A stretch of DNA of 64,000 nt, taken from positions 10,218 through 74,217 of the IMG/VR virus record IMGVR_UViG_3300022890_000019. One strand, 5' to 3'. The notes under the pieces were generated by a model. That model worked only from the letters and a program-made list of their open reading frames with translations, searched no databases and was not told the DNA's origin. This document shows, piece after piece, positions 7,977-32,300 of this stretch (position 1 is its first letter; every line of letters begins with the position of its first letter). The stretch comes from a virus. The position numbers and the translations under genes were made by a program.

Positions 7977-7986
7977 AACCAATACT

Positions 7987-9036: not shown

Positions 9037-9038
9037 CT

Positions 9039-9347: not shown

Positions 9348-9359
9348 ATAATAATAACT

Positions 9360-9836
9360 ATGAACATTGAAGATTTTAAAATGGATTCAGTTAAGATACT
9401 GAACGATGACGTATCAATTGTGTACCATACCAGTACCGATGATGCAAAGAGAACCTACGATAAGAAGATCAAAGAGCTAAAGCCTCATCCTGACTTCTAT
9501 GCTAAACTAAAGGCCTTTAAGCTTGATTACCTGGCTATCTTTGGATTCAAAGAAGAAGATATGGAGTCTACTATCAAAGGTATCTCTGCTAACAAAAAGA
9601 ATCAGATACAGATCAGTGGTATGATTAGTACTATGAATAACATACCTTGTAACCTGAATACTCCCTATGTCTCCAAAGAGTCAGAAGAGATGTCCTCAGA
9701 AGAAGAAGTCATCGATAAGAACCTGGAAGGACTCCGGACAGAAGCCTGGAAATATATTTGGGAGAGAAAGTCTAATCAGACAGAGATGGATTTTGATGGT
9801 GAAAAAAAAGAAGAGGAAACTCCTCCGGAAAAGTAA
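9360..9836 (+). CDS. hypothetical protein with acidic C-terminal tail
   Basis: Contains PHPDF and NLNTP motifs; co-oriented with neighbours. Confidence 0.65.
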   Translation: MNIEDFKMDSVKILNDDVSIVYHTSTDDAKRTYDKKIKELKPHPDFYAKLKAFKLDYLAIFGFKEEDMESTIKGISANKKNQIQISGMISTMNNIPCNLNTPYVSKESEEMSSEEEVIDKNLEGLRTEAWKYIWERKSNQTEMDFDGEKKEEETPPEK

Positions 9837-9868
9837 TTTGTTATGTTGTTTAATTAATTTAGATGTGT

Positions 9869-9960
9869 AGGTTAAAACTGAGGCCTGAGAGACACGATAG
9901 TCCTTTTTCAGTAGTTTACTCATAGAATAAACGAAAGTCTCGTCAGGCTTCTATTAACCT
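9869..9960. other. long intergenic stem-loop
   Basis: Nested pairs AGGTTAA/TTAACCT, AGGCCTGA/TCAGGCTT, GAGAC/GTCTC and inner GTTTA/TAAAC. Confidence 0.65.
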
Positions 9961-9976
9961 TTAAATAAGACCATAT

Positions 9977-10276
9977 ATGCCATACATAGACAGAACAGTT
10001 AATAAAATACCTAGTAATGCCATAAAAGCATCCTTAGATGATGTATCAGAACTCTATAATGATCACTGTAGAGATAGAAAGCACAAAGAAGTAACAGTAT
10101 ATTGTAAGTCTACCATCACTGACCTCATCCATAAGTATAGGCTAAACGACAACTGGCAGTGGATAATACCCTTTATAGAGATAGGTAAGTGCTATGTGGT
10201 AAAGAAAAAACCCTCCTCAGCAAAGCCAAAGAGGGTAAAACCCAATACTACGATAAAAGATAAATTACTATTCTAA
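9977..10276 (+). CDS. hypothetical protein (last gene of + arm)
   Basis: ORF; its 3' end overlaps the terminator of the opposite arm. Confidence 0.45.
   Translation: MPYIDRTVNKIPSNAIKASLDDVSELYNDHCRDRKHKEVTVYCKSTITDLIHKYRLNDNWQWIIPFIEIGKCYVVKKKPSSAKPKRVKPNTTIKDKLLF
10203..10240 (-). terminator. intrinsic terminator ending the virion-gene arm
   Basis: Minus strand reads ACCCTCTTTGGC-TTT-GCTGAGGAGGGT followed by TTTTTCTT, at the convergence of the two arms. Confidence 0.75.
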
Positions 10277-10567
10277 GCCACTAAGCTTCTTAAAGAGTTT
10301 TATCAGCTCTTCTTTAGACAGCTTATCTAAGTCTACCGCTATAGTAGAAAAATACAATTCACTGACTGACTTCAAAGAGTTATTACCTGTATTCTTTAAT
10401 ACTATATCTCCTAGGACAGATAACACCTCTTGACCTTTCTTGTTAGTAACGATAAACATGTTCTCAGGATCTTTAAAGTCCGGTTTTAATTTAAGAATAG
10501 GATTACCTTCTTTCTTTCCTTTTAACTTGTCAAGGATACTTTTGTTCTTTTGTTCTTTTTCTTCCAT
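10268..10567 (-). CDS. hypothetical protein
   Basis: Lys-rich ORF co-oriented with the fibre gene. Confidence 0.6.
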   Translation of the reverse strand: MEEKEQKNKSILDKLKGKKEGNPILKLKPDFKDPENMFIVTNKKGQEVLSVLGDIVLKNTGNNSLKSVSELYFSTIAVDLDKLSKEELIKLFKKLSGLE

Positions 10568-10585
10568 TATATTATGTTTTTAAGT

Positions 10586-12682
10586 TTATGGTGCTGATAT
10601 TTCATTGCTCATATATACAAAGGTAGCCATAATCTGAATGTCATCAGCATCACCAGTACCTCCATTCTTATCTACCTTTACCTCTATCAAATCTCCGTAT
10701 GCTGCAGTGTTTTTTGTAGTTATTATATCTATACCTGTTTCATTAAGAGTTGTAGTAACTAACAGTCCCTTATTGGTATTAGAGGTAGAAATATAATCTG
10801 TAACAGTAGCACCAATACGTAGGTTGACAATAGGATCTACAGTACCGTCATCAGATTTATTGATAACAGAGAAATATACTAGTTTAGCATCTGGCTTTAA
10901 CCATTGGAATCCTCCTGTACGAATACTGAATGTATCTAATACCGTAGTAATAGTATTTGCATTATAATTAGCTATAGGACCAAACAAAATAGATTCAGTA
11001 CATACCCTATCATAACCACCTATCCAAAGTCCTTCTAGCTCGTCAGCAGCTACTACCAGAGGATCTCCTTTGATGTCTATATAGGTAGCTGTTATATCAT
11101 CTATTACCGCATAACGATAACTGGTATCACTATCTAGTTTAAACCTTACAGACATACCTTTTGCATAGTAATTTGTCAAGTCAATAGTAGCTATCCTAGA
11201 AGTAGAACTTGGAGTTTCTGTATAGTCTGTTCCCGGGACAAGATAAGCCCAATTAGAATCTTTTCCACTATTTACATAAGCCATAGGAATTTTTACAGTC
11301 CTATCCGATTGATTAATATCAGTGATAGCCATATAAGATCTAGAATTAATATCATCAGGACTAATGCTAGGTGTATCCAAATTTGAAATATCCATTGCTA
11401 AAGAGATATAATTCCCTGCATCAGTAAATTCTATCCCTCCTTGTATTGTAGGTCGTAATACTCCTGAACCTCCACTATAAAGGTAACCAGGAGCTGCAAC
11501 TGCATCTACTGCTACAAGTTCATCACCAGCAGCACCAGAGACAGCAGCCCATACTGGAACATCACTAACTCCAAAATCAAATTTAAGAAAATGAGCAGCA
11601 CCAGCAGCAGCTAGTCTCTTCCATTCTGTACCATCATGATATAAGATATCTCCTTTAACACCTGTACCAAACAACTTAGTCTGAAAGACAGGTACCGTAT
11701 TACTTTGTATCTGGTTACTAGCATCTAATCCTATCAAAGTAATTATTGCATCAGTAGAAGGAGTATCTATCTGTAACGTTCCTGTCAACTCAGCATCACC
11801 ACCTATCTTAGCTGCCATACTTGCTATTGCAGCACATCCTATTCCTATCGTTCCAAAGGCAGCAGCACCACCCCATCCAAGCATCACATCTCCACCTGCT
11901 TCAGTAGCAGTAATATAGATGTCTCCTGCAACGCCTTCTCCGGCACCCTTTCCAGAATATAAAAGAAGATTACCACCATCAGAGTTTGCTGCTACATAGC
12001 TAGAAGCTCCTGCAGCAATAGTTAAATCTTTACCATCACCATCAGTAGTAATTTCTACAACCATACTTCTTGCACTATTGTTATCAAATACAAAGTCTCC
12101 TGCATGGATATCACCATAGTCTAAATCTAGATCATCTCCTGCATTTACAGGACTTAATATACCTGCTGCTCTTTCCCATAGTACGGCACCTATTAAGAAA
12201 GCTGAAATATCAGCAAGTTTAGGAGTATTATCAGTAGCATCATTAATTAGCACTTTATCAGTAGCAGGAACAAATGTTACTGTAGATAGGTTGCTAGGAT
12301 CCATCTCTATCTGAAAGTCCATACCTGTACTCCCTGCATTATCTTTAGGAGTCAGCTTTAACCCACCCTTCTCCACCGCAGTATCTATAGTACCTGCCAC
12401 TGTACCATCAGCACCTACCATAAAAGGTAGTTGGTGAGGTCTTACTACCGTCTGCATAGAGGTAGCACTAGCACTGGTCCTTGCTATAGCATTAGCATTG
12501 GTAGCTAGCTTTACCAACCCTTGAGCTCCTTCTCCGGCAGTGTCACCTACCTCATCGAAGAAAGGCATAGAATCTAATAGATTTCTATATAGCATCTCAT
12601 CGGGTTTGTTATATTGACGTAATCTCTTTCCTGAAGAAGTAGGATTAGATTGGAAAAAATAATTTCTTGAACGTTTAGACAT
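10586..12682 (-). CDS. tail fibre / receptor-binding protein
   Basis: Gly/Ala/Thr-rich. Contains GLVKLAT, GKDLTIAAG...GGNLLLYSGKG and GDILYHDGTEWKRL fibre-type motifs. Lies after hub-like genes. Confidence 0.7.
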   Translation of the reverse strand: MSKRSRNYFFQSNPTSSGKRLRQYNKPDEMLYRNLLDSMPFFDEVGDTAGEGAQGLVKLATNANAIARTSASATSMQTVVRPHQLPFMVGADGTVAGTIDTAVEKGGLKLTPKDNAGSTGMDFQIEMDPSNLSTVTFVPATDKVLINDATDNTPKLADISAFLIGAVLWERAAGILSPVNAGDDLDLDYGDIHAGDFVFDNNSARSMVVEITTDGDGKDLTIAAGASSYVAANSDGGNLLLYSGKGAGEGVAGDIYITATEAGGDVMLGWGGAAAFGTIGIGCAAIASMAAKIGGDAELTGTLQIDTPSTDAIITLIGLDASNQIQSNTVPVFQTKLFGTGVKGDILYHDGTEWKRLAAAGAAHFLKFDFGVSDVPVWAAVSGAAGDELVAVDAVAAPGYLYSGGSGVLRPTIQGGIEFTDAGNYISLAMDISNLDTPSISPDDINSRSYMAITDINQSDRTVKIPMAYVNSGKDSNWAYLVPGTDYTETPSSTSRIATIDLTNYYAKGMSVRFKLDSDTSYRYAVIDDITATYIDIKGDPLVVAADELEGLWIGGYDRVCTESILFGPIANYNANTITTVLDTFSIRTGGFQWLKPDAKLVYFSVINKSDDGTVDPIVNLRIGATVTDYISTSNTNKGLLVTTTLNETGIDIITTKNTAAYGDLIEVKVDKNGGTGDADDIQIMATFVYMSNEISAP

Positions 12683-12699
12683 AATAGTATTGTTTAAAA

Positions 12700-13188
12700 T
12701 TAAAATACTCTGTTGATAGGATCTGTAGTACCTGATATCTGCATGTATCCTATTCCATCTTGATCTTGCTCTACATAGTATAGGTCAAACAGTTCAAATA
12801 TTTTGAGTATCGTAGCTACACTATACCCCTTGCAGTAGAATTTGTTTTGTATGTCTACAGTACAATAGGCATCTATATAATATTGTGTTCCTTTATCTAA
12901 TCCGGTAACACTTATCTCAGCGTCAAACTCCCTCTCTACTTGTATCATCTCAAGAAAGAGTAGTAAGTGATGTAGGTCCATCAACTGTTGAGCCTTACAT
13001 TTATCTTTATTACCAAAGACCTCGCTAGTAACTAAGTCGTCAAAGACTGCATTAGCTTCATCAAAGATAAGATTCCAGAAAGCTATTCTTTTCTCATCTC
13101 TGTCTTTAACCTGTATGTAACCACAGCAATCTATCTTATACATCACAATTGGGTTAGCTAATTGTGGTGATGGTGGTTTATATCCCAT
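12700..13188 (-). CDS. virion structural protein (tail hub-like)
   Basis: Cys-containing helical protein ending GIGYMQI, paired with the upstream Cys-rich gene. Assignment is by resemblance and context. Confidence 0.4.
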   Translation of the reverse strand: MGYKPPSPQLANPIVMYKIDCCGYIQVKDRDEKRIAFWNLIFDEANAVFDDLVTSEVFGNKDKCKAQQLMDLHHLLLFLEMIQVEREFDAEISVTGLDKGTQYYIDAYCTVDIQNKFYCKGYSVATILKIFELFDLYYVEQDQDGIGYMQISGTTDPINRVF

Positions 13189-13191
13189 ATC

Positions 13192-14286
13192 CTAGCAGGT
13201 TATGTCATTACTCTCTGCTGAATTGCAAAGACCACAACGGTTAGTAATTACTTTTAGCTTGTCTACCATACGACCTACCTGAGCCACATAGTTCTCTCTT
13301 GTTTCATCGATAGAGCCCATACCCATATACTGAAACTTGTCTACAGTGATATATTCTTCAATCTGCTTATACATCCCCCAGATGAGATTCATATCATATC
13401 TTCTCTGAGCTATATTGTAAGTATCCTCACAGTCTTCATCACAAGGATCATTACACTTACAGATGACATATTTAAAGAGATTCTTGTAGCAGGTCTCTGC
13501 ATCACAAAGATCATAGATGAGAAGTTGTGCTTTTAGCTCATCGGAAGTGTCAGTACTCTCCTGACCCCAGATTTCTACATAATAGACTCCATCATCACCA
13601 TCAGTATAATCTTCTAGGTCAATATTTATCTCTCCTCCACTGAACACTAGCTCATCGTCAAGTAATGTTCCATCATATCGATATAGCTTTACCTCTCCTA
13701 CCGTAATCGTTGCTCCACTGTTATCTGTAATAGTATGTTTATGACATGCTGTCTTAGTTATTGAATAGGCAGGACAGTTAGTCTCTACGTTTATCTCTGA
13801 CCAGGTATAATCTTGATCTTCTGTTACTATAGAGTATACAAAGAGATCATAGATGTCTAAGCCTGTAGTAAAAGTACCGTCTAAAGGATTTGTCTCTCCT
13901 ATAGCAATCAACCCCCATCCAGTAGTACCAAAGGCACCAGGCTCCCCAGAAGGGATAGCAGCACTCTGATAGTAGAAGTATCCATCATGCCACACTATCT
14001 TATACTCTGTACTTGAATTATAGGTAGCAGTACCACTCCATATATCTGTAACAAAAGCTTTGATAGTGATAAGTGTCTTGTTGGTAGAAGGGATTGACCA
14101 GTCCGTATTATTGTATATATCATACCCATCTATAGAAGTGTAGAGATCGGAGGTATAGAACAATGCCACACCTAGATCTGACCTTTCTAATGTCTCATAG
14201 GGATAAATGGTAAGATCCTCTATAAAGATATAAGTACAATCTTGATCAGGATCAGCAAATATTCGAAAATTTAAGTCAGTAATCAT
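13192..14286 (-). CDS. virion structural protein (tail hub-like, Cys-rich C-terminus)
   Basis: Beta-rich N-part with DGVY, then LCDAETC...CKCNDPC...RCGLC. Confidence 0.45.
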   Translation of the reverse strand: MITDLNFRIFADPDQDCTYIFIEDLTIYPYETLERSDLGVALFYTSDLYTSIDGYDIYNNTDWSIPSTNKTLITIKAFVTDIWSGTATYNSSTEYKIVWHDGYFYYQSAAIPSGEPGAFGTTGWGLIAIGETNPLDGTFTTGLDIYDLFVYSIVTEDQDYTWSEINVETNCPAYSITKTACHKHTITDNSGATITVGEVKLYRYDGTLLDDELVFSGGEINIDLEDYTDGDDGVYYVEIWGQESTDTSDELKAQLLIYDLCDAETCYKNLFKYVICKCNDPCDEDCEDTYNIAQRRYDMNLIWGMYKQIEEYITVDKFQYMGMGSIDETRENYVAQVGRMVDKLKVITNRCGLCNSAESNDITC

Positions 14287-14302
14287 AATAGTGTAATTTA
14301 TA

Positions 14303-14333
14303 CAAATTTAATATATCATTTATTCTTTGTCAA
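14303..14333 (-). promoter_or_regulatory. Bacteroidota-type promoter for hub/fibre genes
   Basis: Minus strand TTG-N20-TAAATTTG in the 47-bp gap after the giant gene. Confidence 0.7.
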
Positions 14334-17300
14334 CTAATAATCTGATTCTTTAACATCTCTGATTCCTAAACTAGGGAATGGGTCACTAATAGATCCTATA
14401 GCTGTTCTGTATTTTAGAATGTCTTTTACCTTCTTAGGACCAAAAGTAGCATCAACAATATCTAGTAAAATAGAAGTTACAGGGAAAGGATTTAAGAACC
14501 AGTCATAAGAAATCATCATCATATTAAGATCTTTGTACATCCAGTTTAACTTGATAAGCTTTTTGTCATTATCTTTTCCTACCACAGCTCCACTAAGAGC
14601 AATTAAGAGAGAAAATACAGCAGTCTTAATAACAGTACGTGCTAAATTAAGTCTTCTCATAGGAGTCTGATTTTTCCACCAGGAGTCTAAGCCTTCATTC
14701 CTCATATTGGCTATTCCCTGTACAGCACCTACGAAGCTCTGCCATGCACCTTCTATCTCTATCCAATCTCTCTGAGTAACCCACTCACCATTTTCTAACT
14801 GTATTGCTTTAAAGCCTGCTCCAAAAGAAGTTTTTCTTGGAGATGCAAAAAGACCTGCATTCCATATTTTATCTGCTGAGAATACTCTAAACTGAGAAGC
14901 AGCAGCACCTAGATAGTCATTACCTAATAACCACTTAGCAGTATTGTCCATACTACCTATAATAAATTTATCTCCATACCATTTTAATTGTTCTGAAGCT
15001 AGGGTATGATCATGTCCTCGATCTACTTTGGTAGCATCTTCTTCCATAAGACCCTGATCCTTTAACCTATTTTTAAGACCGTTTGGACCTTCTACTAGTA
15101 CCTCTTGCTCTTTAGTCTGGGTACCATCTTCATTATAATATCTTTCGTCTTTTTTGATATCATACTGTATGTCTCCTTTTTCATTAAGAGAATAAGCATC
15201 CCAACTACCCTCATGAATCATCCATCCTGCCATACCTACTAATCTAGCTTCTGCATCAGAAGCCCAGTTAGTGATATGAGCCCACTGATCATTAAGAATA
15301 TTCCCTTTGTTAGCTACATTAAGCCATGGACTATCTATAAGGTCTCTTTCTGTACGATTTACTAACTGGAACATAGCACCGAGTCTTCTAGCTTTTTTGA
15401 AGTTAGTAGCTACTTCATATCTTGCTTTATTAACATCTCCTGTAGTAGGCAGATAGATTTTTTGTGATTCATCTAATCCTATATTTGCAATAGAGGCAGC
15501 TAAAGCATTTATCTGTTCACTCATTTCATTCCATATACCTGACTTAGCACCTATAGTCCACTTGTATCCTAGAGAGATCATACTGAATGCACTAAGAGTA
15601 GCTCTAGCAAATGTTTTAACATCTACTGTTACCCCACCGGGAAGAGTGATCTTAACAGAAGTATCTTCATTCTTTTTCATAGCTAACCTATTGCTAAACA
15701 TTTCAGCAAATCTTCTGTTGTTTACCATGAAGTCTTTAGAGTTCTTAGTAGATTCAAAGTATCCATAGACAGCATCTACATCATTAAAAGCAGGCATATA
15801 TCTATTTTCATATTCTTCTGTGCGGATCCCTTCCAATGTGTAATAGTTAATTATCTTCTCTAGGTTCGTACTTGCTAGCATATTTTTAGATAAGTCTGCT
15901 ACCGTTAAGCCATTCTTAGTATATAATAGTCCTGCTTGTTCATAAAGCTTATCCTTACTATTCATCTGTGAAGCAAAAACATTACTGATAGTATTCATAC
16001 CGCTAGTGAAAGCCATACGACTTTTATCATTTAAGTTGTCATCGATAAACTCATCATAGTTAACAAACCTTTGACCCATCCTATCCCAGGCAGCTTTGAA
16101 GTTCCCTGATAACAATGTTTCATTTAGTCCTTTAGAGATAATAACCATAGTTCCCTTTTCTACAGATTCATCAAACTCTTTAGCAACCTCTGCCTTACTG
16201 ATCTTTGAATTACCGAAAACATCTTTACCTTTTATATCACTTGTTCTACTATGATACCAGTTATCGATAGTCCTCTGACGGAATGTCTTCCATACTACCT
16301 CCATCAGTGCTTTGTCATCTTCATTATGCTTAGGATTATTAAAGTCTAATATAGGAAGCATTATAGGTACAGTCTCCCCTTTCTTATAGGTTTTAAGACC
16401 TACCTTCTGGTCTTTCTCAAGGGTAAGGGTAGTGTGCTTAAATAAATGCTTATAATAAACACTACCTTCATCTTTAATTAGTGTTTCAGCAGCTACCTGT
16501 GGATGTAAAGCAATATAATTTTTGGCTACTTTCTGTGCTTTATCATATATCTGATTATGTATCTTCATGTAACGATCTACGACTATAGAATTAACAAGTC
16601 TACCTTTAGATACTAGCATCTGTAAAAGATCATCTCTTACATTGTGGATAGGTACAAGATTCTTTTCGAACTTATTCATATCCTTGATAGAGTTTTTAAA
16701 GAAAACAGCTCCATAGCTTTCAAGTTCTAAGATACTCATAGAGACAAGAAGATCTTCATGATCTTTTTCTTTTTTATCTCTATTCCTGCCCCGTAAATCT
16801 TTCTGCAGTGCTCTTAATGCTTTTACCTGATCATGAACAGTAGTATTCCTATCCATAAATAGCGTTGAGAGGCTTTCTGCTCTATTGACATATCCATATC
16901 CATACTTGCGATATCCTTCATCATCCATAACTTTCTTTAGATACATCTGGAACCTTCTTACGAAAGACTGTTCGTATTTTGTACTATCAGAGATTTTCTT
17001 GTCTGTGAATATATCTTTAACATCATCATTAACTAGGTTATTTAACCATTCATCTTGCTGAGACAGTACATTCATATTGCTAAACATATCCTGGATGTCT
17101 AACATCATATAAGACTTAACATTGCTAGGTTGTATTTCTAGCACTCCCATGCCTCTGAACTTAACCTTACCACCACTAGCCTTCATCATGTTCATTATAG
17201 ACATAGAGAGGATAGCTCTTCTGATATCGTATGCTGAGTTACTCCAAGTACCACCAGCTTCTATAAACTTATTATCTGTCATCATAGTACCTAACAGTCT

Positions 17301-20300
17301 ATTCCTATTTGCCGGTGCAAAAGGAACTTTGTCTTGTAAGGAGAAGGTAGTAACATCAAGGATAGAGAGATCTACAGTACCATCGTCTTCGATACCGTGA
17401 ATGGTAATCAGTGGATCAAAGCCTTCAAAGGCGCTATTGTATAATGCCCTGACAGCCTTAATATCGCTGTTTTTAAGGTCACTATACTTCATTACAGTTT
17501 CAATCTTATCACCCAGGCCAAGATAGAAAGCCATATCTGTTACAGCTTTCTCGCTATATACATTACCAAAGGCCTTTTTAGCTGCATCATAGATAGTTTC
17601 CTTCTGGTCTATCACTAGGTTAATAAAGTTCTGTACATTGTTCTTATAGGATACCTCGAAAGAGTTAATATGAGGAACAATATCTTTTTCTATAGCAGCC
17701 TCTAGCTGTTCATCAGTCATCGTATTAGGATAGGCAAAAGTCTTATCTAAGCTATGGAAGACATAGTTACCTGCATCATCGGTATAGCTCTTCATCTTAT
17801 GAAGTGTCGTTCTTACAAATTCTTCTGTGTTAAGCTCACCCATAGTATGTCCATACTCTGAATAAGGATTCACTATAGCTGCAAAGTCCTTAGTGGTATT
17901 TACTCCTTCTTGTAGGTAGAACTTATTACCTTCTTCTAGGGACCTGTAAGCGTCATCTAGCTGCCATATGTCATAGTTTACTGGATCAGTACCGTACGTT
18001 TGCCTACCAGTCTCGAGGAGGAAGTCTGAGACCTTACCTTCAGTGAATATCTTATCTAGCTTCTTCCTAAAAGGAAAGAATAGATCATGAAGTGAATTGT
18101 TAACAAGTGTGTTGATAGAGGTTGCTATATTCAGTAAAGCATCTAAAGAGGTATTATCAGTAAAAAAGTCTCTGATACTCTCTTTAAGCATCACCTTCAT
18201 AGCTGTATTCCTGTTGATTATCTGTGAAAGGATGGCCAGTACCTCATGAGTTACATCACCATCGGTAGTAGGTCTATTGTGTTCTTTAAGCTTTCTTACT
18301 ACATGGTCACGGATAGGTTCTATCAGCTTATCTCCATTGTTAGCAGAGTCTATGATAGTGTTCTTAATAGTATTCCAGGTAGCAGGATCATTCATTATCA
18401 TTATCCCATTCCTGAAATGCTGAAACTCATGGACAGGCATAGTAAAAGAGAACTTCTCTACATTCATATGTATACCATCACCGTCAAACATTCCAGAGGC
18501 TCCTTTTAAAGACTCAGTAGTACCTTCTGTAATAGGTACTCCTGTTACTTTTTCCTTTAAAGCATCCATCCACCGTTGTGCTGCCTTAGTTGACAGTCTA
18601 CCTAGACTATGCTTTTTAAAGTCTATCATAGTATAGCGAGTCATAGACCCTTCTTTGCCTACATACTTGCTTAAAGCACTCATAGACTTGTTGACAAACT
18701 TCTGTGCTTCTTCGGATCCTTCTATCTCTCTTACTAGTTCACCTTCTACAGTAGCTATAAACTCACTGTCTCCTTTCTTAATTTTATACTGTGCTTTTTG
18801 ATTCTTCTCTTCCTGCTGTTTAGCTATCTTAATCTGATAGTTTTCCTTAGCTTGCTCGATCTGTTCTTCTGAGAGATCAGCTTTCACCCAAACAACGTTC
18901 GTTGGCTGTATTCTGAGGGCTCTGATCAACGTTCCCTCCTCAGTGGTATATAACCCTTCCAGACGGTCTACGTTCATATTAGCGTAGCTGTGTCCTCTGA
19001 CATATGATAATGGTACCTGCTGGTTGTCTAATAGAAGATCTAGCTTCTCAGGACTCATCTTTACTATCTCCATAGTAGAAGTCATATCCTTGACAGTATC
19101 AAAGCCACCTCTCTCACCGATTAGATATTCATAGTCGTACTTCTCAAAAGCATTACCGAAGAGATCCTGATCATTTTTTATCCTGGCAGTGAAGTTAGCA
19201 GTAAACCTCTTAAAGTCTTTACGCTTCATAATAGTCTCAGGGAAGATACCTAGGTCTCTAGCCTTACGGGTGAGGAAACTGCTCATACCCTCTTTATGCT
19301 GTACCCACTTGGTAAACCTCTCTACAAGGTCGGTAAGCCTATTCATATTCTTAGGCATCCACTCCATCTCTGCCTTAGTCATCTCAAGACTCATAGCTAA
19401 GCCATCTTCACCATAGTAGTGTTCTGTACCCATGATTTCATTGATACTTCCTTTACGGTAGTTAAAGCCTGTATTGATAAGCTGGTTGACCCTGTATAGC
19501 TCTTTTAGGTATTTAGGTAACCTGTCGAATTCTATAGCTAGATCTGATAGCTGCTGCTCGCTGAGGTTAAAGGCATCTGCTAGCCTGATATATTCTTTCC
19601 CCTCTTGTCCTTGCAGAACAAGGTTAGCGATAAACTTATTATTCTTGATAGCATCATGAAACTCATTGGTATAGTCTATCCCTATAGCCTGTATAGCTCT
19701 GGAAGCATCACCGAAGTTCATAGTAGACATACTCCTGATAAGGTCATGAAACTGTGGGAACTGCCTTACAAAGAGTGTCCTTCCTTCTACATTATCTAGT
19801 GCTACCGTCTCGTAGTTAGACTCAGGAGAAAAATAGTTACCATCAATATCCTGAAGAGGTACTGCGATGTTAAACTTCCTTCCAGTAAATGATCTCTTAA
19901 AAAACTTATCCAGGAACAACTGCTGCATACCAGACTTAAAAGTATAAAACTGCTTTGCATAGTTAAAGACATTGTTAAGTTGTCCTTTCAAATAGTTAGG
20001 AGCAAAATAATCCCAGATCACTTTGTTGTCTTCCAGGAAAGTCTTAGAAGCCACCTCTCTCTGGTTGTTGATCTCATTATAATAATCTTTAAAGTGTGTG
20101 CGTCTTACAAATTCAGAGATGTTAATAGCCTTGGCTATTTCTAGCTCATAGTCCAATAATTTCTCTGCTTCATTGTTAGCTTCATCAAATTGTGAAGATA
20201 TAAGCCTGGAATATTTATTATCCAGTTTCTTAAAGTTCTCTATATGACTCTCTGCATTCCACTCAGCACCTTGCATAAACTCCTCGTAAGTCATCCCTAG

Positions 20301-23300
20301 ATACTTAGAAAGCTCGTTCTCTGCCTTATAGAGGTCAAAGTCCATTACTGGTACTCCATTGCGTAAAGCTACAAAGCGAGTCATCCTACGTAAAGCTTCT
20401 GCTGTGAAGACGTATTTTTTAAGCTCTGTAAGGACCTGATAGTTTTCTCTTCTCTCCTGCTCACTCTTTATAGCACGTATGTCTCTGGACAGCTCTTCTA
20501 TAAGATTCATGTCCGGTGGAGTGTTCTCATCTACCTTTTCAGCTTCAGTAAGTTTTGTCTCTAAAGCTTCTCTCTTAGAAAGTAAAGATTTGTTGCTGTC
20601 AGTATTTTTACTTCTCTCGTTAAGGACCATCTCTTCAGCTACCAGTTCATATACCTGTTCTGCCTCAAAAACTTCTAAGCTGTTCTGGAAACTTCTTTGT
20701 GTATAGATCTTCTCTACTACAGGATGTTCGAAGAATGTAGCTATCTCCTGGTTGCTCTTACCGTCAGCAGTCATTACAGCTACCACGGGAACAGCTTCAG
20801 CAGTGATACCTAGCCTACCTAATACAAGCTCTTTGGCATTATCTAAGGCTACCTGCATCCAATTACCTAAATTGATAAATGGAGATGTGCTCCACTGCTC
20901 TTCGTCAAACAGTGAGAGGTTTCTTAACCCCGGAGCATTATTTCTGATAAAGGTCTTTCCTAGCTGTGCCAGGTAAGAGACTCCTGAGAGAGACATGGCC
21001 AAGATACCTATAGCCTTGTTACCTTCACTAGCAGTTTGACTACTATCAAGGTAAGAGGCAAAATCATTATCTCTTCCATACTTTCTTTTCTTTTTATCTA
21101 CAAGTTCCTTTAAGCCTTTTACATCTGACTTAATAAATATCTTACTAGCATTAGCAGGGTCCTGGTATACATTGTCTATCTCATCAAGGATAGCGTTACG
21201 AGCACCACCCTCTCCTTCGATAGCTAACTTACCATCAGCAAACTCTCTCATATATACCGTTAACTGGTCAATATCCTGGTCAGCATTGTTACGGATGTTC
21301 ATCTCTACAGGAACATAAGCTGTGTTACCATTGTCATTGATAAAAGCTGTGATCTCTAATATAGAAGCACTGCCTAACCTATCTGCAGGTACACGACCTG
21401 AATATACTTTTAGAGACTCTTTGAAGTTTCTAAAGTAAGACAGTGGATCTTCTGGACTGTTTCTAAATATAGGAGAACTCTCTTTGTTGATAACAGAGCC
21501 ACCTTCAGCTAAAGTCTGTAAGAAGTCTATAAACTCATCATCGTTTAGGTTACGTACATTCCAGGATAACACTTCTCCATTAGCTTCTGCTTCTATAGTA
21601 AAGACATCGTTAAGAGTTTCATCATTCTTTATACCAAACTCTCTCATGTAAGGATAAGGCATTACCGTCTGTCCTCTCTGAATACCTTCATTGCCAGCAG
21701 TCATATCTTTTAAGTCTGCAGGAGTATATCCGAGATCTATAAGGTCTTCTACTGACTCTATAGTGCTATTGGTAAACCGTTCTATCTCTTGTAGAGTATA
21801 AGGAATCCCATTCTCATAATAAAGCTGATAACCATAGGAAGAAGACTGGTTTACACGTAAGCCTTTAAAAGAGGTACGTATAGCATTGTCGTTTACAAAA
21901 CTCCTATAAGCCTGTTTTAACTTCTGTGCTACTTCAGGAGAATGTATAATGCCAGGGTTGTTGATAACATTGTTGATAAGGTCAGTGTATCCTGTGATAA
22001 GACCCATCTGACGTATAGCCTGTAAGCCTCTCTCTCTGAGGAAAGAAACAAACTTCTCTATATCCTGTTCGTTAAAGGCTGCTTCTGGTTTGTTAGCCTC
22101 TATACCCATCAAAGTATTTATCCTAGCCTTACTCATAGTATAAAGCTCTTCTTGTAATATCCTTATCCTCTTACCTCTGTTTAGGTTACTAGCACCTATG
22201 CCCATATAGGATAGATTCTGTGAAGGAGGAGCCTGTCTTTGTACCTTGTTAGTCTCTTGGTATGGATTTAACACTATACGCAGAGAAGAGTTGTCAAAAT
22301 CTCTTGCTATGAGATCTTTCTCTTCAGAAGAGTAAGGATCATACATGTTCACATAGTTGACAGTCTGCTTCTCTATAGTCTCATCAGCAAATCCTCTTGG
22401 AGTACGAGCCTTTATCTCTTCAGAGAAGTTACTCTCTTCTACGATCCAGTCTCTTAGGTTCCTAAATGCTTTCTGTGCATCCCTGCTACCAGCATGACCT
22501 GTAGCTTCATAAAGTTCTTTGAATTTAGCATAGAGGTCTATATCATAGTTCTCAAAGTCTTTTCTCATAACCTTTGTGACATGATCTAATAGATCTTTTT
22601 GCATCTGACGTACAGGAAGTGTCTGTTCGTAGGTCTGAGAGCTGAAAAAATTCATAGACTCTTTTTCCTGGTACTGATCACCATACTGAAAATCCATACG
22701 ATTATCCAGAGTCTTGACTCTTGTCTTGTCAATAGGACCATACTGATAATCTATACCACTTTTCTCCATAAAAGATTCCCAGAGCATAAACCCATTCACA
22801 CCACCGTCATCATTTTCTATCCATTCACCGGTCGTTGCATCTTCTTTGTACATGGTACTAACCATTATCTCCTTACCCATAGCAGGGAGACCATATTTAG
22901 TATTTACTACAAGCTTACTACCACCAGTTGCTTTAGATCCTGATCTCTTAACCTTATCAGCAGCATCTTTATGGTTCTGTACATTACCAAAGGCAAACTC
23001 TCCTACCGCATTGTTAACGATATGGTATGCATAGAAGTGAGCTTTGTAGACAGGATTCCATATTATATTCTCTGTAGTAGTTGTGACTGTGATAGGAGTC
23101 TCGGAAACACCATAGCGATTTGCTGAAATAGACATCTCTTCCATGTGCTCTTCCATCTTCTCTGTATAGAAGTAACCCATCTTACCTTCTATAAGGGTTT
23201 TTACGTCGTTTTGTTGACGATATCCTATTTGTGATAGCTTACCTGCATATTCCCTATATAGTGGAAAGAACAGCTTATCTCTTTCAGTCTTGTTTAGTAA

Positions 23301-26300
23301 GGCAAACCTTTCTCCATTGTTAGAGAACTTCTGATAGTTGTCATGGTTATAGATAGCTTCATATCCAGGTACCTTAAACAGTATAGAATTACCGAGTGTA
23401 ACAGTATTACCATCTAAGAAGTAATCTTTGTTCTTACGTAGTCCAGAACGCATTAGGTCTATAGCCTGCTCATCGGTGAGAGTCTTAGAGAAAGATTCTA
23501 GGCTTTTAGGATTAAAGTTCTTTAAGTCTTTAACAGACCATAGCTCTCTAGGAAATACTTTGGTAAGGTTGTTAGCAGGTATCTCTCTGGCAAATTTACC
23601 CTGGGACATCTGCATCTCTCTGTTAGCTCTCTCAAATTCTATAGCGATACCATGGCTTATCATCTTCTCATCTACATTAGCTGAGGTGATATTACCATTA
23701 GAGTCTCTATCTATGTTTATCAGTCTTCTTCCCTTTCCAAAGGAGAAGTCAGTATTAGTAATATATGTTAGCTCTTTATCAGCTATATTAGTCATAGTAA
23801 GAAAGATATCCTGAAGCTTATCAGTAGACTTACGTATACCTTCTATGAAATTAGCAAGGTTTATAGTAGCTAGATCTTTAGAACCAGGCTTTACAATACC
23901 TCTATTACCTACACGCAGTCCATTACCTATAGTGAGGCTTCGTATACGGATACCTTTAGGATCAGCTATCCAGTTAGTCCATTTGCCTTTAGTATTCTTC
24001 CAGATAGAGTTATCTAGTATTTCTTTAGGCATATTATTGATCTTATCAGTAAGCCACGCAGAACCATCCCCGAACATATCAAAGACCCAGGACTTCATCT
24101 TAAATCCCCAGGCTTTAGTACCATCAGGTCTATTGGAGAAGAGATCGGAGTCTATACCCTTATTATATACTTCCAGTGCTGCTATCACACCAAAGGCATT
24201 ATAATAGTCTACAGGCTTATAAATCTTAACATCACTCTTAATAGTCTCTACGTTGTTACCTGCAAAGACTTTCTCAAAACCATCTATAGTGCTATCGGTG
24301 ATGTTCATCTTCTTACGAAAGGAACTCATCTCTTGGTTGAAAGGTACAGATAGTTCTTTTATCTGCTTAGCTTCTTGCTTTTTTGCTTCCTCTTCATTAA
24401 TAGCTTTATTGTCTAGCTTACGCAATATACCCTTGTTGATAGTCTCTATCTTGTCGAGCATGGTAAGGTTAGAAGACGCAGACCAGAACATATTCATAAA
24501 GGTCTCTGCCAGGAAGGTATTAGTGTTCTCTAAGTTATACTCAGGAGTACGTTTGTTCAGCTCTACCCTAGCACCTTCATGGTGCATGTTGTTATACATA
24601 TTGTAGATAGTCTGGTCAGTGACGTTCTTGAGTCCTATAAAGTTCTTGATGTATGTGAGTATCTTATCTCTACTGTCGTTGTCATGGAAAGCCTCAGTGA
24701 AAGAGATCTTACCGTCAGTATAAGAGATGACTTTTATCTTCTGCTTGTTCTTTACATAGGAGATACCACTAGAAGTAACTTCAAACTCTGCATTCTTACC
24801 ACTGCCTAGTCTATCTTTTACATGCTCTCTGAAGCTCCGGGTGTCTTTGTCATATAGTGTCTGAGAGATGCCATCGATAATCTCTTTCTTCTTGTTATCA
24901 AAAGTATTCTCAAAGGAGTTAACAATATTATATACCGTCTCGTCTCCTGACTTCTTAGACTCTATAAAAGAAGACTTAGGCCTCATAAAAGAAATATTAT
25001 AGGATATCAGTGAGTTGATAAAGTCTGAGAGGTCACTCTGGATATCTAGCTTTAGCTGAGACACATTGCTTCTACCGTCACTCTTGATAAGCTCATCGAT
25101 ACTATTTATCCTATTGCTTAATGAAGGTTTACCTGTGAAAGCTTCAAAGAACCTATGATAGAAACTAAGGATGTTACTACCCTTATAGGTGTCAAGTCCT
25201 GCCTCAGTAGCTAAGTTATAGAGTTCCTGAGTAAAGGCCTCTACTGGATTCAGTGAAGGATCTTTTAGTAGCCTGTTAGCTACACGCATCCCTGCATCTT
25301 TCAGAGACTTCTCAAGGTCCTTACTGTTCACAAAGGCATATGCATCTTTAGTATCCCACTCGTTGCGTACCAATCTCCCATTGCTAGAATAATAGTACTG
25401 ATGAAACCTAGTAGCATTTATCTGCATCTTCATAAAGTCACTCTTAGTCTGGTCAGGATTTGCATCATCCCCGGCTCTGTTATACTGAGTAGACTGCTTA
25501 TTCCATTTGTAGAAGCGACCTGTCTCTGGGTTATACCCTGGCATAAGCCTTACTATAAAAGAAGTGAATATTTCTTGGTTAGCTAACCTAAGCCACCCTA
25601 GATTTCTTCTCTCTACTATAGAGAGTTTCTTTGCATCGTCATCAGTGATCTGGCTGTAAGGGATACCTACAGAGGTAAGCTCATCAGCAAACTCATTACC
25701 ATACTCTTCATACTCTTTCTGTACATCTTTGATAGCTTCTGTCATAGGTACTACCTTGTCAACAGATAAATCAGAAGAGAAGAAAGTATATTGTATTACT
25801 GCATCAGCTACAGCATTGAGATACTTGTTAATGTCATTACCAAATACCTTATATTGATTATTGAAGATCTCTATATAGTCAGTGTTAGGAGTATCATCTT
25901 TAGCGAATCCATCTTCTGCCTTATGGTTAAAGTTATCAGCCTGGTATTCGTCAAGCTCACTCTCTCCTTCCATTCTTACAATGTCTCTACCACCATCATG
26001 TACTGGTTGTACATTTCTATAGTAACCGTGATCCATCTTATAAAATAGCTCATCGAGAGTATTTACCCTCTTAGTATATCCATTAAAGAGCTTGTTTACA
26101 AAGTCTACAAATCTACTCCATAGTCCTTGCTTAGGCTTTACAGAGTCTAAGTTTAGTCCTGAATAGCCATAGTCTCTTGCCATCCACTCTGTAAGATAGT
26201 CTTCAGTAGCATTAGGAAGGCCTAACAGTTCCTTTGTGGCATTATAGAGCCTCTGACGAGAGTTCTCATCAATTAGGTAGTCGAATACCAGATGAAAGAA

Positions 26301-29300
26301 TTCGTGCTTAGGAGTAGTGTATTTAATACCTTTTTTATACAAGGCTAGTTTTATCCTACCATTATACATTAACCCGTGGATGTCCATACCGTCAAACTGA
26401 AGGTTAGGAGTAATATCATTCTTTACCTGTTCCCAAATAGAAGGGTGAGCTATCTTTTCGAATAGTTCTCTTACCGCAGCTACAGTTACAGTACGTGGCT
26501 CTATGTTATCAGTCTTTATTTCAAACCTAGGTCTCTTAGCACCTTTCTTACTTGCAGGTCCATCTGAACTTTTAGGAGTCTTATTAGTAATTTCTTCGTT
26601 AACGTCAACAAGTCCATCAGTAGATATATTTACATATGGAAAGTGTATAGCCTCTGCACTGGTAACGATATTCTCCATCTCACTAGGTGATAACTCTCTG
26701 GTACTTGTGCTTAGGTCTATAGTATACGGCTGGTATAGTTTGTCTATCTGTAGTCTTAGGTTCGCTGCCTCACCGGTAACGTCATCTTTATATAGCTCTG
26801 TCACCTGGTCCAGGAATGCATCTAGTACGTCAAGCTTTATCTGTGCATCGGTACGTACATTGTCTGAATCTAAAAGGAAGATATCTCTGTTTACCCTTAC
26901 ATTGACTCTACCACCTACCTTTTCAAAGTAGGTACCAAAGAAGTCGTTAAGAGCTTTGTTATTAGTAATGATGCTTAGGTTTTGTGCGAAGACATTCTTC
27001 CAGAACATCCTGTTAAGTTCACTACCAAAGAAGCTATCCTGTTCAGAGGCACGGATATCTTTTAGGCTCTGCTTGTCCTCTTTGATCTTCTCATGCATCC
27101 TCTTAGAATTCATCTTCCCAAGGTTGTTAGTCTTAAAGATCACATAGGCCTCGTTAGCAGTACTGTTTACATCACCTTCAGAGAACTTATACTTTAAGAG
27201 TAGTCCTACCCTACCACTACCATAGAATGTCTGTACTATCTTATCAGAGAAAGTAACCATTTGTCCGGAAAGTGTATTCTCTATATGAGCCATAAACTCA
27301 GCAAAAGTTCTAAGAGGACCTTTGTTATAGATTACATTACCCTCGTTGATATCATTTTCTAGTATGATCTCTCCAAAGCTGTACTCATCGGTATTAGAGT
27401 CATATCCTTTCTTTCTCAGAGAAGCCTTATAGTAGTTAACCTCTTTGTTAGCTGTATGGTGTTCTGGGCTTAGCTCCATGCCTGTATAGCTACTGTCAAA
27501 GCCTTCAGATATCTGTCGCTTTATATTCTCTAAGGGCTGTGAGTAATCTCTTATCTGCTGCTTAGCGTATCCTGCATCAGTCTCCCCCAGAGAAGCTATA
27601 TATTGATTTCTTTGTAAGATCTCTCTTTCATTACTTGTAAGAGACTCTTCGTTGATAGCACTAACCTTAATAGCTAGCACGTTGTCAAAGTTCTTCCAGG
27701 TACCAGTATTTCTATCTTCCATCAATGCTGACTTTAGATATACTAGCTCAGAAGTTACCTTTCTCTTATAGACCATGTTTAAGATAGACACTCTATCCTT
27801 ACGTAGCTGATCCATATTTACATCAGCTGACGAAGTGTTAAAGACACTATAGATAGTACCCCAAAGCTTGTTACCGTTAAGCCACGCCTTAGCTTGTCCT
27901 GTGAAGAACGTCTTACCACTCTCTATGTCATCAAGGTCAGTAGTCTCTTTAGGGCCACTGCGAAGGGTATACTCTTTCTCAAAAGTGTTAAGATCTATCT
28001 GCTTGCCACCGAGGTATATTTCATACTCTACCACACCATCAGTAGTTTTCTCTATAATAGAATCTATGATATAGAAGTTTCCTGTAGAGACTTCATCAGC
28101 TACAGCACCTTTAACGATGCTTGGCTTTCCTGGGTACTCAGTAAGATACTTGTTAGTAGTATATCCGGGAGTAGGTGCAGGAGTCTTGACTATAGGATCC
28201 AATATTCCTAGAGCTACCTGTGACTCTTTACCAAAAGGTTCTGCTAAAGTCTTGGTAAGCTCATTATAAGCTTTATATTTCTGTCCTGTAGCAAAAGAGT
28301 CTGCTGTCAGGTCTTTCTGGTTCGTTACACTCTGGGTAATCTTAAAGAAGGCACCAGAATCATCTCCTTTGTTGATAGTATAGATACCGTTCTTACGGAA
28401 CTTGTGAAGGATAGGAGTAGCTATCTTAGTCTTTACCTCTTTAGGTTTCTCCTGTGGCTTGATAGCTGACTCTATACCTATGTTCTTTAGATACTCATTC
28501 ATATCATTATAGATATCAGAAGTATCAAGTACCTCTTGCTGACCATCTATCCACCATGAAGGCCTCTGTGTAAGATTTAACCCTTCTGAGCCTACCAGAC
28601 CCATAAAGCGAGAAGCTCTCCCTACAGCTGTATAAGCACTGTTAGAAGCTACAAATTCTTTTAACTCTTTACCATTGTATTTATATCCCCAGCTATTGAG
28701 GTTTACTGCCATGTATACTTCATCTTTACGAAGACCTTGGATGCTTGGAATCTTCCTAGGCATCACATTGGTTGCAGGATCAGACATCAACACATATACC
28801 TGTCCCTGGAATTCTGTCTTTAGGTTACCATGCTTGTCAAAGAGCTTTTCAACTATCTTCCTAGTTTCCTCTTTGGTGTTAGGATCTTTTAGGAGTGCAT
28901 CTATCTGTTCTGAGTTTAAGAAGACAAGAGCACTGCTTACACTCTCTGGCCTGGACAGTGCATCACTGATAACACTATCTACAGTATTATAATATTTTCC
29001 TCCCTCTCTTCTAGTTATCCCTACTGCTTCATATTCGTTGACATACACTTCAGGATAACCCATAGAGTTATTGTCTAGTCTGTTCCTAAACGCTTCTGCT
29101 AGTCTTTCGATAACAGGATTGCGAGTGGTGAACTTAAACATCACCGGGAACGTACGAGCACCCGTCTTCTGTGCATAGGAGATATTGTTCTTAGCATCAG
29201 GAGGCATCATCTGTGAAGCATCACCGAGCCATATGATCTGAAAGCTAGGATCGGTAGTATCTTCATTATAGTTCTTATTGATAACTTGTAGGTTGTCTTT

Positions 29301-32300
29301 ACTAAGCAGAGAAGCCTCATCGACTATCATACCTTCATACTGATTAGGGTTTTGTACCTTACCACCTATGAAGTCTGCCATAGAGATATTATCAAATACC
29401 TGATCAATACCTTCTAAAGAACTGCTTAGCGTATTTAGTACCTCCTGGGTATGGTGTACCAATAAATATTTTCTTTTAGGATCTTTTTTAAGCTGGTCTC
29501 TGATAGCTATAGCTTCAGGAATCATATGCTGACTCTTACCACCTCCAAAGTCTCCTCTCATAAAGATAGAGTTAGCCATAAAGATATCTTCTTTCTCTGA
29601 CACCTTCTTTATATGTTCACTGTTGTTAAATTCTACCTCCCTGACGATCTTGAGCACATCAGCATTATGTCCTAGCAGTTGGTTTACCACCATATTCACA
29701 CCCATCATCTGTTCGAAGGTAGAGATATTCTGAGCCGTTACATTGACTTTAGACCTTGCACCCTGAAGAGTATTGATGCTCTCTCCATTAAGAGCCATGA
29801 GGAAGTTTACCAGGTAGGTATATCCTTCATGAGTCTTATATACATCATTGACACTATTTACCTTTAACAGATTATAGTAATAGTTAAGAGTCTCTCCTAC
29901 CTTAGTATAGTCAGGAGCATTGAAGTAAGCTGAGTTGTATCTGAACTTCTTAGCAGCAAGTAGCCTGTTTATAAAGTCATAGTTCACTAGCTGGTCACTG
30001 GCACCCTGCATCTTTACAAAAATGTCATGTAGCACCTTCTCACTGTTTAACAAGTCTGCCATCTCCTCTACACCCGGAGGAGTGTTTTTATCCTTTTGTT
30101 CCTGGGTAAGGTCTTTAACATCTTCTAACAGTTTCTTAATATCAGGAACGAGCTCTTCCATCATGGTAGGATCCATCTCATAGAAGAGAGTCACTACCTG
30201 CTTCTGAGCATTGATATGTCCTTGACGTAGCTTGATCTGGAAAAACTTACTAGCTTCTTTAGCTAGCTGTACACTGTTACCCATAGTATCGAGATCTATC
30301 AACATCTCACTTACTTGCTCTCTGCTATTCCTTAGCTCTGACTCACTGACATAATATTTATATGCAGGTAGCTCTTTATTCTTTGAAGGTTCTAGCTTAG
30401 GATGATCTGATCCTTTAGAGAAGAAGAACATTCCTTTATCAGCAGTCTTCAGAGCATCTCTAACAGCATTGATAGACTTAATCAAAGAGGCTGCAGTAGA
30501 CGGGTTAAGGTCAGTACTTGTCTGCTCCCTGAAGTTATCCACCCTAGCCCTCATCTCTTCGAGAAACATCATAGGTACATTGTCATCATTGCTTAGCTGT
30601 CTTATCTTCTCTGTATTCTCATCTACAAAAGCATTCTCTGATAGCTGTGTAATAGCATCTATAGTTTCCCTGGTAGTATTAAGCTGATCTTTTACATCTT
30701 CATTGGTAGGATCAGTAGCATATTCATCGTTAAGTTCTTTCTCAAGTTGTTCTAGCTGCTTCTGATATTTAGCACTTTCTCTTATTGCCTGGATCTGCTC
30801 TTCATTACCCTGTGCAGGGATACCAAAAGTAATTTCTTTAGAGAGAGCTATTATTGCCTTGCAGACACCCTCAAACCCCTTCATAAGGTCTTTCTTTGAC
30901 TTTAGCTTAGAAGCTTCACCTACGGTAGTAAATAGGTCTTTGTGGGTAACTACAGTCTCATTGTTACTCTTTACAATCTTCTCTTGCTTTTCTATTTCCT
31001 GAGTCTGGTATTCTGTGAGCTTCTGTGAGAACTCTGTAGCTTTCTCATAGGTATCTAAATGATCCAGGATATTCCTTTTGTATTTAGTCTGGTACTTCTC
31101 TGACTTCCGAAACTTATCGGTAAGCTCTGTACCTTCATTCTTAAAATGTTCATCAGAGACATTCTTAGCATAGAGTAAAGCACTATACTTCTCTCTGATA
31201 GCTTCATTATATTTCTTACTGTATTTTGTGTCTGCACCTTCAGGAACAGTATACTCTTGTATAGCTTGAGAGACAACACCTAGCTGCTCATCGATCTTAG
31301 CTATCTGTGCAGCATCTTCCTCGGTAGCCTCTTCCTTATTCTCTAATGCTAGCTTCTGCTCAGCAAGACCTTTATAGGATACGATAAGATCAGTAAGTTC
31401 TTTCTGCATGAGCTTACTCCTACCTATAGCCTCAAGTACTATTGGGTTGTCAATACCAAAATCTTTAACGATACCTTCAAACATATCCATAGACTGCATC
31501 ATACCCTGATATGCAACATCATTCATAGAACCATCAACACTCTCAGGATTTTTTATTTCTCCTTCAGTAGAGATGTAATTTGGACCTAAAGACTCTTTGT
31601 TATATAGATCTTGAGTAGCCTTTCTTAGCTTATCCATCTCACCAGTTACACCATAATAACCCATAGTATAATCTGCCATAGGATTCTTGCCGGCACCCAT
31701 AGTGAGTCCCATTGTAATACCACCCATAAATCCTGCTACAGTAGACTCTAGTACATTATCTCCTATCCTATTAGATAAGTTCTCTAAGTAACTCTTATTA
31801 GCATCTACAGGACCAAATAATCCTTTTCCTGGTAATAATCCATTCTCTCCATCATATCTTATCTGATCATGGAATGTCTGCATAGAGTTCTCTATCATCT
31901 GCTGAAAGAATTCTTCTGTTCCTTCTTCACCACCTGCTAAGATAGTTCTAGCAAATATAGTTTTCCCCTCAGAAATAGCTTTGATAAAGCCGTGCAACCA
32001 TAATCTTTTTTGTGTCTTTGTACCTTCTTTAAGATTCTTTATACCAAATTTTTTCATTACCTTTTTAGCTGCAGTTAACCTTGCTGCCTTATCTACAAAA
32101 TAACCTGATCCTCTAGCAATAACATTTCTGCCTATAAATCCTTCTGTAAATGTCTCAGAAGCTACCTGTATAGGATACATCCAAGCGATATCAGCTTCCT
32201 CTATCCCCATATCTCTAGCAGTCTGTACAAAGTGATGGCCACTCATTAATCCAAAGACTCCAAAAGATGTCCAGGTAGAAGCAAAAGATTTAAACCCATT

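Follow-up and report, generated by a model that had tools for sequence, protein, structure and literature searches.

A 64,000-nucleotide stretch of viral DNA, here called the window (positions 10,218 to 74,217 of IMG/VR record IMGVR_UViG_3300022890_000019), carries on its minus strand a giant open reading frame (ORF) that encodes 6,381 residues in one uninterrupted frame (P0001, 14334..33479). In order, the encoded protein comprises an N-terminal region with hydrophobic, Gly-rich segments, a superfamily 1 (SF1) helicase, an HExxH site, a two-barrel RNA polymerase (RNAP) core, another HExxH site, and a C-terminal region. The giant virion polymerase protein of crAss-like phages is known already; the new element is a divergent, conserved SF1 helicase module upstream of the polymerase, which is apparently active as judged from its residues. 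The SF1 helicase core, at residues ~1251–1644, is a compact one of the Dda/RecD/Pif1 (SF1B-like) kind. This Dda/RecD-type domain (residues 1251–1644, 28548..29729, minus strand) has two RecA-like lobes and is delineated by an alignment of 12 domain sequences that are 21–33% identical to that of the window (A1), by profile matches in the PDB, by an AlphaFold (AF2) model, and by Foldseek and VIA-align comparisons. The core spans ~390 residues and has a ~50-residue helical N-terminal extension. The original prediction had assigned the helicase to 28580–29600; the location holds, but the domain begins earlier, near residue 1251 (nucleotide 29729), at a helix with the sequence [ST][FY]EQ.

All features of the domain lie on the minus strand, and an exact-string search placed each of the motifs that had been proposed where they were expected, in the correct order and with the correct spacing. 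The [ST][FY]EQ helix, which is represented in the window by STFEQ (residues 1253–1257, 29709..29723), is found ~55 residues upstream of Walker A, is kept in most members of the family, and is possibly the equivalent of a Q-motif. Walker A (motif I) reads GDFGGGKS (residues 1309–1316, 29532..29555) and includes K1315, and Walker B (motif II) reads MIVDEAS (residues 1384–1390, 29310..29330) and includes D1387 and E1388. These are followed by motif III (WLGDASQ, residues 1417–1423, 29211..29231), in which G1418, D1419, and Q1422 are invariant, and by a motif IV-like sequence (TTRNPVI, residues 1451–1457, 29109..29129), in which the position of the canonical Arg is variable in the family. Motif V (SIQGLRKDEV, residues 1579–1588, 28716..28745) contains an invariant G1582 and a Gln, Q1581, that is present in nearly all members, and motif VI (AYTAVGRA, residues 1615–1622, 28614..28637) supplies R1621 as a candidate arginine finger. 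In addition to the string search, motifs I, II, III, V, and VI are supported by A1 and the PDB profile, and the motif IV-like sequence by an alignment. A Lys/Pro/Glu-rich linker of variable length follows the helicase (residues ~1645–1700, 28380..28547) and is marked by gappy, low-complexity alignment columns. The helicase is present as a single copy in the genome (neither the A1 profile nor the Pfam families AAA_30 and UvrD_C_2 match anything else), and the GC content of this stretch, 0.398, is the same as that of its flanks; there is no sign of recent transfer.

To place the domain in a family, 1.84 billion representative proteins were scanned with HMMER, which returned 13 matches. These matches comprise nine giants of 4,852–6,991 residues that have the domain at roughly residues 1180–2100 (at residues 112–543 in P0003, which is cut by the end of its contig), and also two short fragments. 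The remaining two (P0010 and P0013) were set aside as spurious: both are repeat proteins in which only a Lys/Glu-rich insert matched. Two more members, L006 and L007, came from a scan of JGI metagenomes. In total, 12 distinct giants of 4,682–6,991 residues are available from separate metagenomes, all of them singletons on contigs of ~32–89 kb. The domain order is common to the 12 giants, and the helicase is found at the same position in each. Ten columns of A1 are invariant, namely G59, G64, and K65 in motif I, D137 and E138 in motif II, G169, D170, and Q173 in motif III, G332 in motif V, and one family-specific Gly, such that nine of the ten fall in motifs I, II, III, and V. The Arg of motif VI (R371 in A1) is nearly invariant among the 12 sequences, and the canonical [YF]R of motif IV is present in three of them; the window has a Thr at this position and an Arg two residues further on. 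The Walker motifs are thus intact in the homologs, and the proposal that the catalytic residues look retained is borne out. Invariance centered on catalytic residues at such divergence is as expected from purifying selection on an active NTPase, and the conserved residues suggest that the helicase is apparently active. In L006, the giant ORF (6488–20536) stops after 4,682 residues and the next ORF (20541–21122) begins 5 nucleotides later. From this break, the C-terminal part may be a separate gene, and fusion boundaries may vary within the family.

The sequence searches place the family among SF1 helicases of the RecD/Dda type, as had been proposed. When the family profile was compared with the PDB, the best match was Leptospirillum Dda (9kwf, E 1.3e-9), with motifs I–III and V–VI aligned, followed by 8bns (5e-7), RecD (8e-7), Bacteroides Pif1 (4e-5), MERS nsp13 (1e-4), RecD2 (2e-3), HelD (5e-3), and T4 Dda (1e-2); nearly all of these are SF1B proteins. 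Motif III of the family pairs with GDPAQL of 9kwf and GDRDQL of RecD, and motifs V and VI pair with HKAQGS and YTAVTR of 9kwf. In Pfam, with the members scanned singly, AAA_30 was matched by 11 of the 12 (E <= 0.1, best 2.3e-13), AAA_19 by 10 of the 12, and Viral_helicase1 by four of the 12 (1e-12). The window sequence alone gave sub-threshold Pfam matches to the SLFN-g3 helicase (E 0.03) and AAA_30 (E 0.08) and a local match to a Dda-like helicase in PHROGs (E 8e-6). With the same sequence, no meaningful match was obtained from a phmmer search of the PDB, no match at E <= 1e-3 from tblastn against 50,697 phage records, and no relative from a scan of IMG/VR.

The predicted structure agrees with this assignment. 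Single-sequence AlphaFold gave a predicted local distance difference test score (pLDDT) of only 32, and AF2 with the alignment gave a pLDDT of 83.5 and a predicted template modeling score of 0.85. All top Foldseek matches of this model are SF1 helicases; those from the PDB are SLFN11, RecD2, RecD, nsP2, DSH9, and Dda, and those from BFVD are RecD/Dda-like proteins of phages and giant viruses. In VIA-align, the model superimposes on DSH9 (8jx6) with a Z score of 21.3 (300 residues, 3.9 Å), on T4 Dda (3upu) with 20.4, on UvrD with 20.0, and on RecD2 with 19.7. As these alignments span model residues 1–381, both RecA-like lobes are covered. Neither of the outcomes named in the original prediction as refuting it, a structure that lacks two RecA-like lobes or degenerate Walker motifs among homologs, was seen.

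The polymerase core (residues 3770–4274, 20658..22172, minus strand) is found in the same polypeptide ~2,100 residues downstream of the helicase and was delineated by hhalign to phi14:2 gp66 and crAss001 gp50 and by motif alignment. A profile of the RNAP region of the giants aligns with residues 1145–1673 of phi14:2 gp66 over 417 columns (probability 94.8%, E 5e-8), which takes in the catalytic loop and a downstream DNAK-type motif, and the same region aligns with crAss001 gp50 with a probability of 94.4%. The catalytic loop in the window, located by exact-string search, is DQDID (residues 4067–4071, 21267-21281, minus strand). Among ten related giants, this loop reads DQDID in three, DFDID in four, and DYDID in three, so the middle aromatic residue is unfixed in the lineage. 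Two HExxH sites bracket the polymerase core: HEFFH at residue 2392 (26292..26306, minus strand), which is present in ten of ten giants compared, and HEFQH at residue 5017 (18417..18431, minus strand), which is present in seven of the ten. Neither HExxH region matches any peptidase family in Pfam. The 776 residues that lead from the helicase to the first HExxH site (residues 1645–2420, 26220-28547, minus strand) are conserved over five relatives, with the blocks INKGD, WGTxYSVF, and LVYLK, and have no match in the PDB or Pfam. A Pfam scan of two whole relatives identified no further domain, and comparison of the other parts of the giant with phi14:2 gp65 and gp67 and the cr127_1 giants by hhalign gave nothing significant, the best pairing being that of the C-terminus with the gp65 C-terminus (E 0.008, probability 5%).

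The phage is a distant crAss-like one, and the window is its structural arm. On the same strand, upstream of the giant gene, are the genes for the large terminase (TerL), the portal, the major capsid protein, and large virion proteins, and the giant gene closes this structural module in the gene order of phi14:2. The best GenBank matches of the portal are all Crassvirales proteins, at ~22% identity. The phi14:2 module finishes with g067-g066-g065, of 5,398 residues altogether, and reviews describe RNAP genes of up to ~6,000 residues as a crAss hallmark. Based on the polymerase homology and the position at the module end, the 6,381-residue ORF is best read as a single-chain version of the phi14:2/crAss001 polymerase block. 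Both phi14:2 gp66 and crAss001 gp50 have been found in virions by mass spectrometry, and crAss001 gp47, gp49, and gp50 are virion proteins that are thought to exit the capsid before the DNA, in a partly unfolded state. The original prediction described the helicase as part of an ejected protein. It does lie inside a giant with a crAss-type virion RNAP core; packaging and ejection of the giant are presumed from homology and synteny with phi14:2 gp66 and crAss001 gp50.

The source genome is a linear record of 74,217 bp with a completeness estimate of 87%. At its left contig end, outside the window, a DnaB-like helicase is encoded on the plus strand (G000 412-1281, L008), which agrees with the proposal that the SF1 helicase is located outside the replication module. 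The ~13% by which the genome falls short of completeness is probably the remainder of that module. A plus-strand block contains a DUF5131/radical-SAM-like gene (6834-7523) and an ATP-dependent DNA ligase-like gene (7987-9036). The large terminase ORF (54167-57418, minus strand) encodes 1,083 residues, and the TerL match is confined to the first ~470. Residues ~474–800 match PHROGs named ribonucleotide reductase and endonuclease; judged from these matches, the insertion looks like an intein or homing endonuclease.

To determine how widely a helicase and a crAss polymerase are joined, ten GenBank crAss-like records were searched with AAA_30, and eight of them also with the A1 profile. The A1 profile, which recovers the window's own copy with an E value of 2.8e-132, has no match in phi14:2, crAss001, cr127_1, cr4_1, cr273_1, cr53_1, Dulem virus 42, or cr7_1, and the helicase domain is absent from phi14:2 g065–g071, crAss001 gp45–gp50, and the two cr127_1 giants. 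A free-standing SF1 helicase is present in the replication module of two of the ten records. In cr3_1, it is a 484-residue gene that adjoins genes for uracil-DNA glycosylase and DNA polymerase, and in cr127_1, it is found in a 501-residue open frame. An SF1 helicase is also listed among the crassvirus replication genes by Yutin et al. Since most of the crAss-like phages tested are without the embedded helicase, it is an accessory module rather than a core part, and it cannot be a required part of the crAss-type polymerase.

One of the public records, cr50_1 (Cohcovirus hiberniae, Suoliviridae, GenBank MT774375), encodes a comparable giant at the position of the polymerase block (gp_05258, 4,774 residues, L015 15825-30149). 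This protein has HEAFH at residue 1665, DFDID at residue 3154, and a C-terminal Dda-like helicase at residues ~4271–4725. Its polymerase region aligns with that of the window with an hhalign probability of 91.9%, and its helicase domain matches AAA_30 with an E value of 1.8e-24 and T4-type Dda in BLAST with E values of 1e-12 to 1e-17. A public record thus already contains an SF1 helicase joined to a crAss polymerase, there at the other end of the polymerase than in the window. In GenBank, this giant is labelled only 'DNA helicase', an annotation that hides the polymerase. No paper on a helicase inside a crAss polymerase block was found in the literature.

The phylogeny against free-standing crAss SF1 helicases that had been proposed was built from 22 helicases. 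The window family forms one clade (100/100) on a long branch, to which neither the free crAss helicases nor the cr50_1 domain belongs, and the free crAss helicases join first an N4-like helicase and next T4-type Dda. The tree establishes the separate clade but does not settle its origin: in approximately unbiased tests, a common origin with the cr50_1 domain is not rejected (p 0.40), and one with the free crAss helicases is marginally disfavored and formally not rejected (p 0.052). No claim of independent capture is made.

The biochemistry of a related polymerase suggests what such a helicase may do. Recombinant phi14:2 gp66 does not transcribe duplex M13 DNA, is weakly active on native phage DNA, and is efficient on single-stranded or denatured DNA; moreover, early transcripts share no common promoter motif. 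Initiation by polymerases of the gp66 family is good on single-stranded and poor on duplex DNA. QDE-1, a structural relative of gp66, depends on RPA and on the QDE-3 helicase. Of the three roles put forward in the original prediction (DNA pulling, DNA melting for the polymerase, and removal of proteins or R-loops), melting has support in the literature, given the requirement of gp66 for single-stranded DNA. In the mechanism proposed here, the giant would be a capsid cargo that is ejected with the DNA or ahead of it and reaches the host, as for phi14:2 gp66 and crAss001 gp47, gp49, and gp50. Following ejection and refolding, the helicase would load on the entering phage DNA and open it with ATP, and the single-stranded template could then be passed to the tethered polymerase or to a polymerase released by the HExxH sites. 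Should the helicase share the 5'-to-3' polarity of its nearest relatives in sequence, its movement along the non-template strand would follow the direction that the polymerase takes on the template strand. The reading of the domain as a helper, injected to unwind the arriving phage DNA for the polymerase to which it is tethered, is given an even chance, an estimate that includes the near-certain part concerning its identity. A stronger version is held more tentatively and leans toward the doubtful: the fused helicase may be the partner, missing until now, that opens DNA for the two-barrel virion polymerases of the crAss type, giving a covalently tethered machine that makes a single-stranded template from the entering duplex without a promoter-melting factor. 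If so, the occurrence of the join at two positions, here and in cr50_1, would reflect repeated selection for coupling both activities, and crassviruses that lack the helicase would have to recruit an equivalent activity in trans.

Several observations weigh against this interpretation, some of them at the level of the domain itself. The canonical Arg of motif IV is missing from nine of the 12 members, and the window sequence alone scores 13.5 bits (E 0.06) against AAA_30, for which the Pfam cut-off is 27 bits. The structure scores do not part SF1B helicases (Dda, RecD2) from the SF1A helicase UvrD (Z 20), and 5'-to-3' polarity is therefore suggested by the sequence profiles only. A pin or SH3-type accessory domain was not demonstrated in the AF2 model. 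At the level of function, we infer packaging, ejection, ATPase activity, unwinding, polarity, and polymerase coupling alike. Finally, phi14:2 and crAss001 transcribe their early genes without any such domain, and AAA_30 is unmatched in seven of the ten GenBank records (phi14:2, crAss001, cr4_1, cr273_1, cr53_1, Dulem virus 42, and cr7_1). Taken together, these last two results indicate that a fused helicase is not a general requirement of the polymerase.

The same data can be read in other ways. The domain could be a pre-packed Dda-like helper that acts independently of the polymerase, by clearing proteins from the DNA, aiding the start of replication or recombination, or blunting host defense, according to the logic of injected polyvalent proteins, which carry helicases thought to act on incoming DNA. 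The free-standing SF1 helicases in the replication modules of cr3_1 and cr127_1 fit such a role, as does the finding that none of 11 genomes (that of the window and the ten from GenBank) has both a free and an embedded copy. This sample is small, however, and a free copy could be missing from the window's genome, which is 87% complete. In addition, the helicase is fused to the polymerase giant in every case, in the 12 family members and, at another position, in cr50_1, and independence from the polymerase is for these reasons thought unlikely, if quite conceivable. A closer tie to transcription is envisaged if the helicase is a transcript-release or polymerase-recycling factor that strips RNA from RNA:DNA hybrids on the single-stranded template or removes stalled polymerase. 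In cells, Sen1, Pif1, and HelD strip RNA from hybrids or remove stalled polymerase, and the model does resemble RNA polymerase-bound HelD (Z 17.7), which is also found by the profile (E 5e-3), and senataxin (Z 16.7). On single-stranded DNA, moreover, there would presumably be no non-template strand to displace the RNA. These scores nonetheless fall short of those for Dda, RecD2, and UvrD and stem from the SF1 core that all of them have, and a HelD-specific or Sen1-specific accessory domain was not found; a role in RNA release is accordingly judged unlikely.

Two further proposals concern the mechanics of entry and the activity of the domain. As a genome-entry motor, the helicase would be anchored at the ejection channel and pull the phage DNA into the cell. 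Compatible with this arrangement, the helicase is covalently linked to a chain whose N-terminal segments are hydrophobic and Gly-rich and which would be expected to exit the capsid before the DNA, and in T7, DNA entry is driven by a polymerase. SF1 helicases of the Dda/RecD kind, however, translocate on single strands rather than on duplex DNA, and most relatives lack the domain and must nonetheless import their DNA, which makes an entry motor improbable. A domain that is catalytically dead and retained only as a structural or binding scaffold could account for the lack of conservation of the motif IV Arg and for the sub-threshold Pfam scores of the window sequence. This proposal is very improbable, as the columns that remain invariant at 21–33% identity are the catalytic ones, namely the motif I Lys, the motif II Asp-Glu, the motif III Gly-Asp-x-x-Gln, and the motif V Gly, with the motif VI Arg nearly so. 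A chance motif match was likewise rejected along with a dead domain, as the conservation pattern argues against either.

Template opening for the tethered polymerase thus continues to be the preferred interpretation. crAss-like phages are among the most abundant human gut viruses. Their injected polymerase works on single-stranded DNA, and the question addressed here is by what route such a template is obtained from a duplex genome. A conserved, catalytically intact helicase within the polymerase giant is a concrete candidate for opening it. The window family also constitutes a very divergent SF1 helicase lineage that is missed by ordinary annotation, with Pfam scores below threshold, a local match in PHROGs, and none in BLAST. 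The finding has its limits: crAss-like phages carry the helicase as an optional component, a similar join sits uncommented in GenBank, and the functions of the helicase are all inferred.

Relative to known systems, the helicase most closely resembles T4 Dda and other Dda-type SF1B helicases (3UPU, 8JX6 DSH9, and 9KWF), RecD2 (3GPL/3E1S), RecD (1W36_D), and Pif1 (5FHD), with which it shares motifs I, Ia, II, III, V, and VI, arranged in identical order. Its fold of two RecA-like lobes is that of the Dda/RecD2 group (Z 19–21 over 277–300 residues). In contrast, identity to the Dda/RecD/Pif1 group is only 12–18%, the canonical motif IV Arg is mostly absent, and the helicase is embedded in a 6,381-residue protein, whereas theirs are free-standing. 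Injected polyvalent proteins (Iyer et al. 2017, PMC5512222) are likewise very large, multi-enzyme proteins that are delivered with DNA and often combine helicase and zinc-peptidase-type modules; the resemblance to the window is general only. The helicases of these proteins are mostly of superfamily 2 (SF2; SNF2/DarB type), with few UvrD-like ones on plasmids (PMC5512222), and the terms crAss, RecD, and Dda are not in the text of that paper. At the level of the whole protein, the giant resembles phi14:2 gp67-gp66-gp65 and crAss001 gp47/gp49/gp50 in its position at the end of the structural module, its homologous polymerase core, and its DxDxD loop. The crAss001 block consists of three proteins of 262.5, 154.5, and 276.9 kDa, which have a similar total size to the single 6,381-residue chain of the window. 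The phi14:2/crAss001 block differs in that it has no helicase domain and a DFDID loop, as compared with the helicase and DQDID loop of the window. The cr50_1 giant occupies the same genomic position as that of the window and unites HExxH, a DxDxD loop, and an SF1 helicase in one chain. Its helicase, however, is C-terminal, downstream of the polymerase, whereas that of the window is ~2,100 residues upstream, and its domain is plainly Dda-like, whereas the window family has no BLAST match. A functional parallel is found in Neurospora, where QDE-1, a two-barrel polymerase with structural kinship to gp66, favors single-stranded DNA and is helicase-dependent. There, the helicase QDE-3 is a separate eukaryotic protein of the RecQ type (SF2), whereas the helicase of the window belongs to SF1 and is covalently joined to the polymerase.

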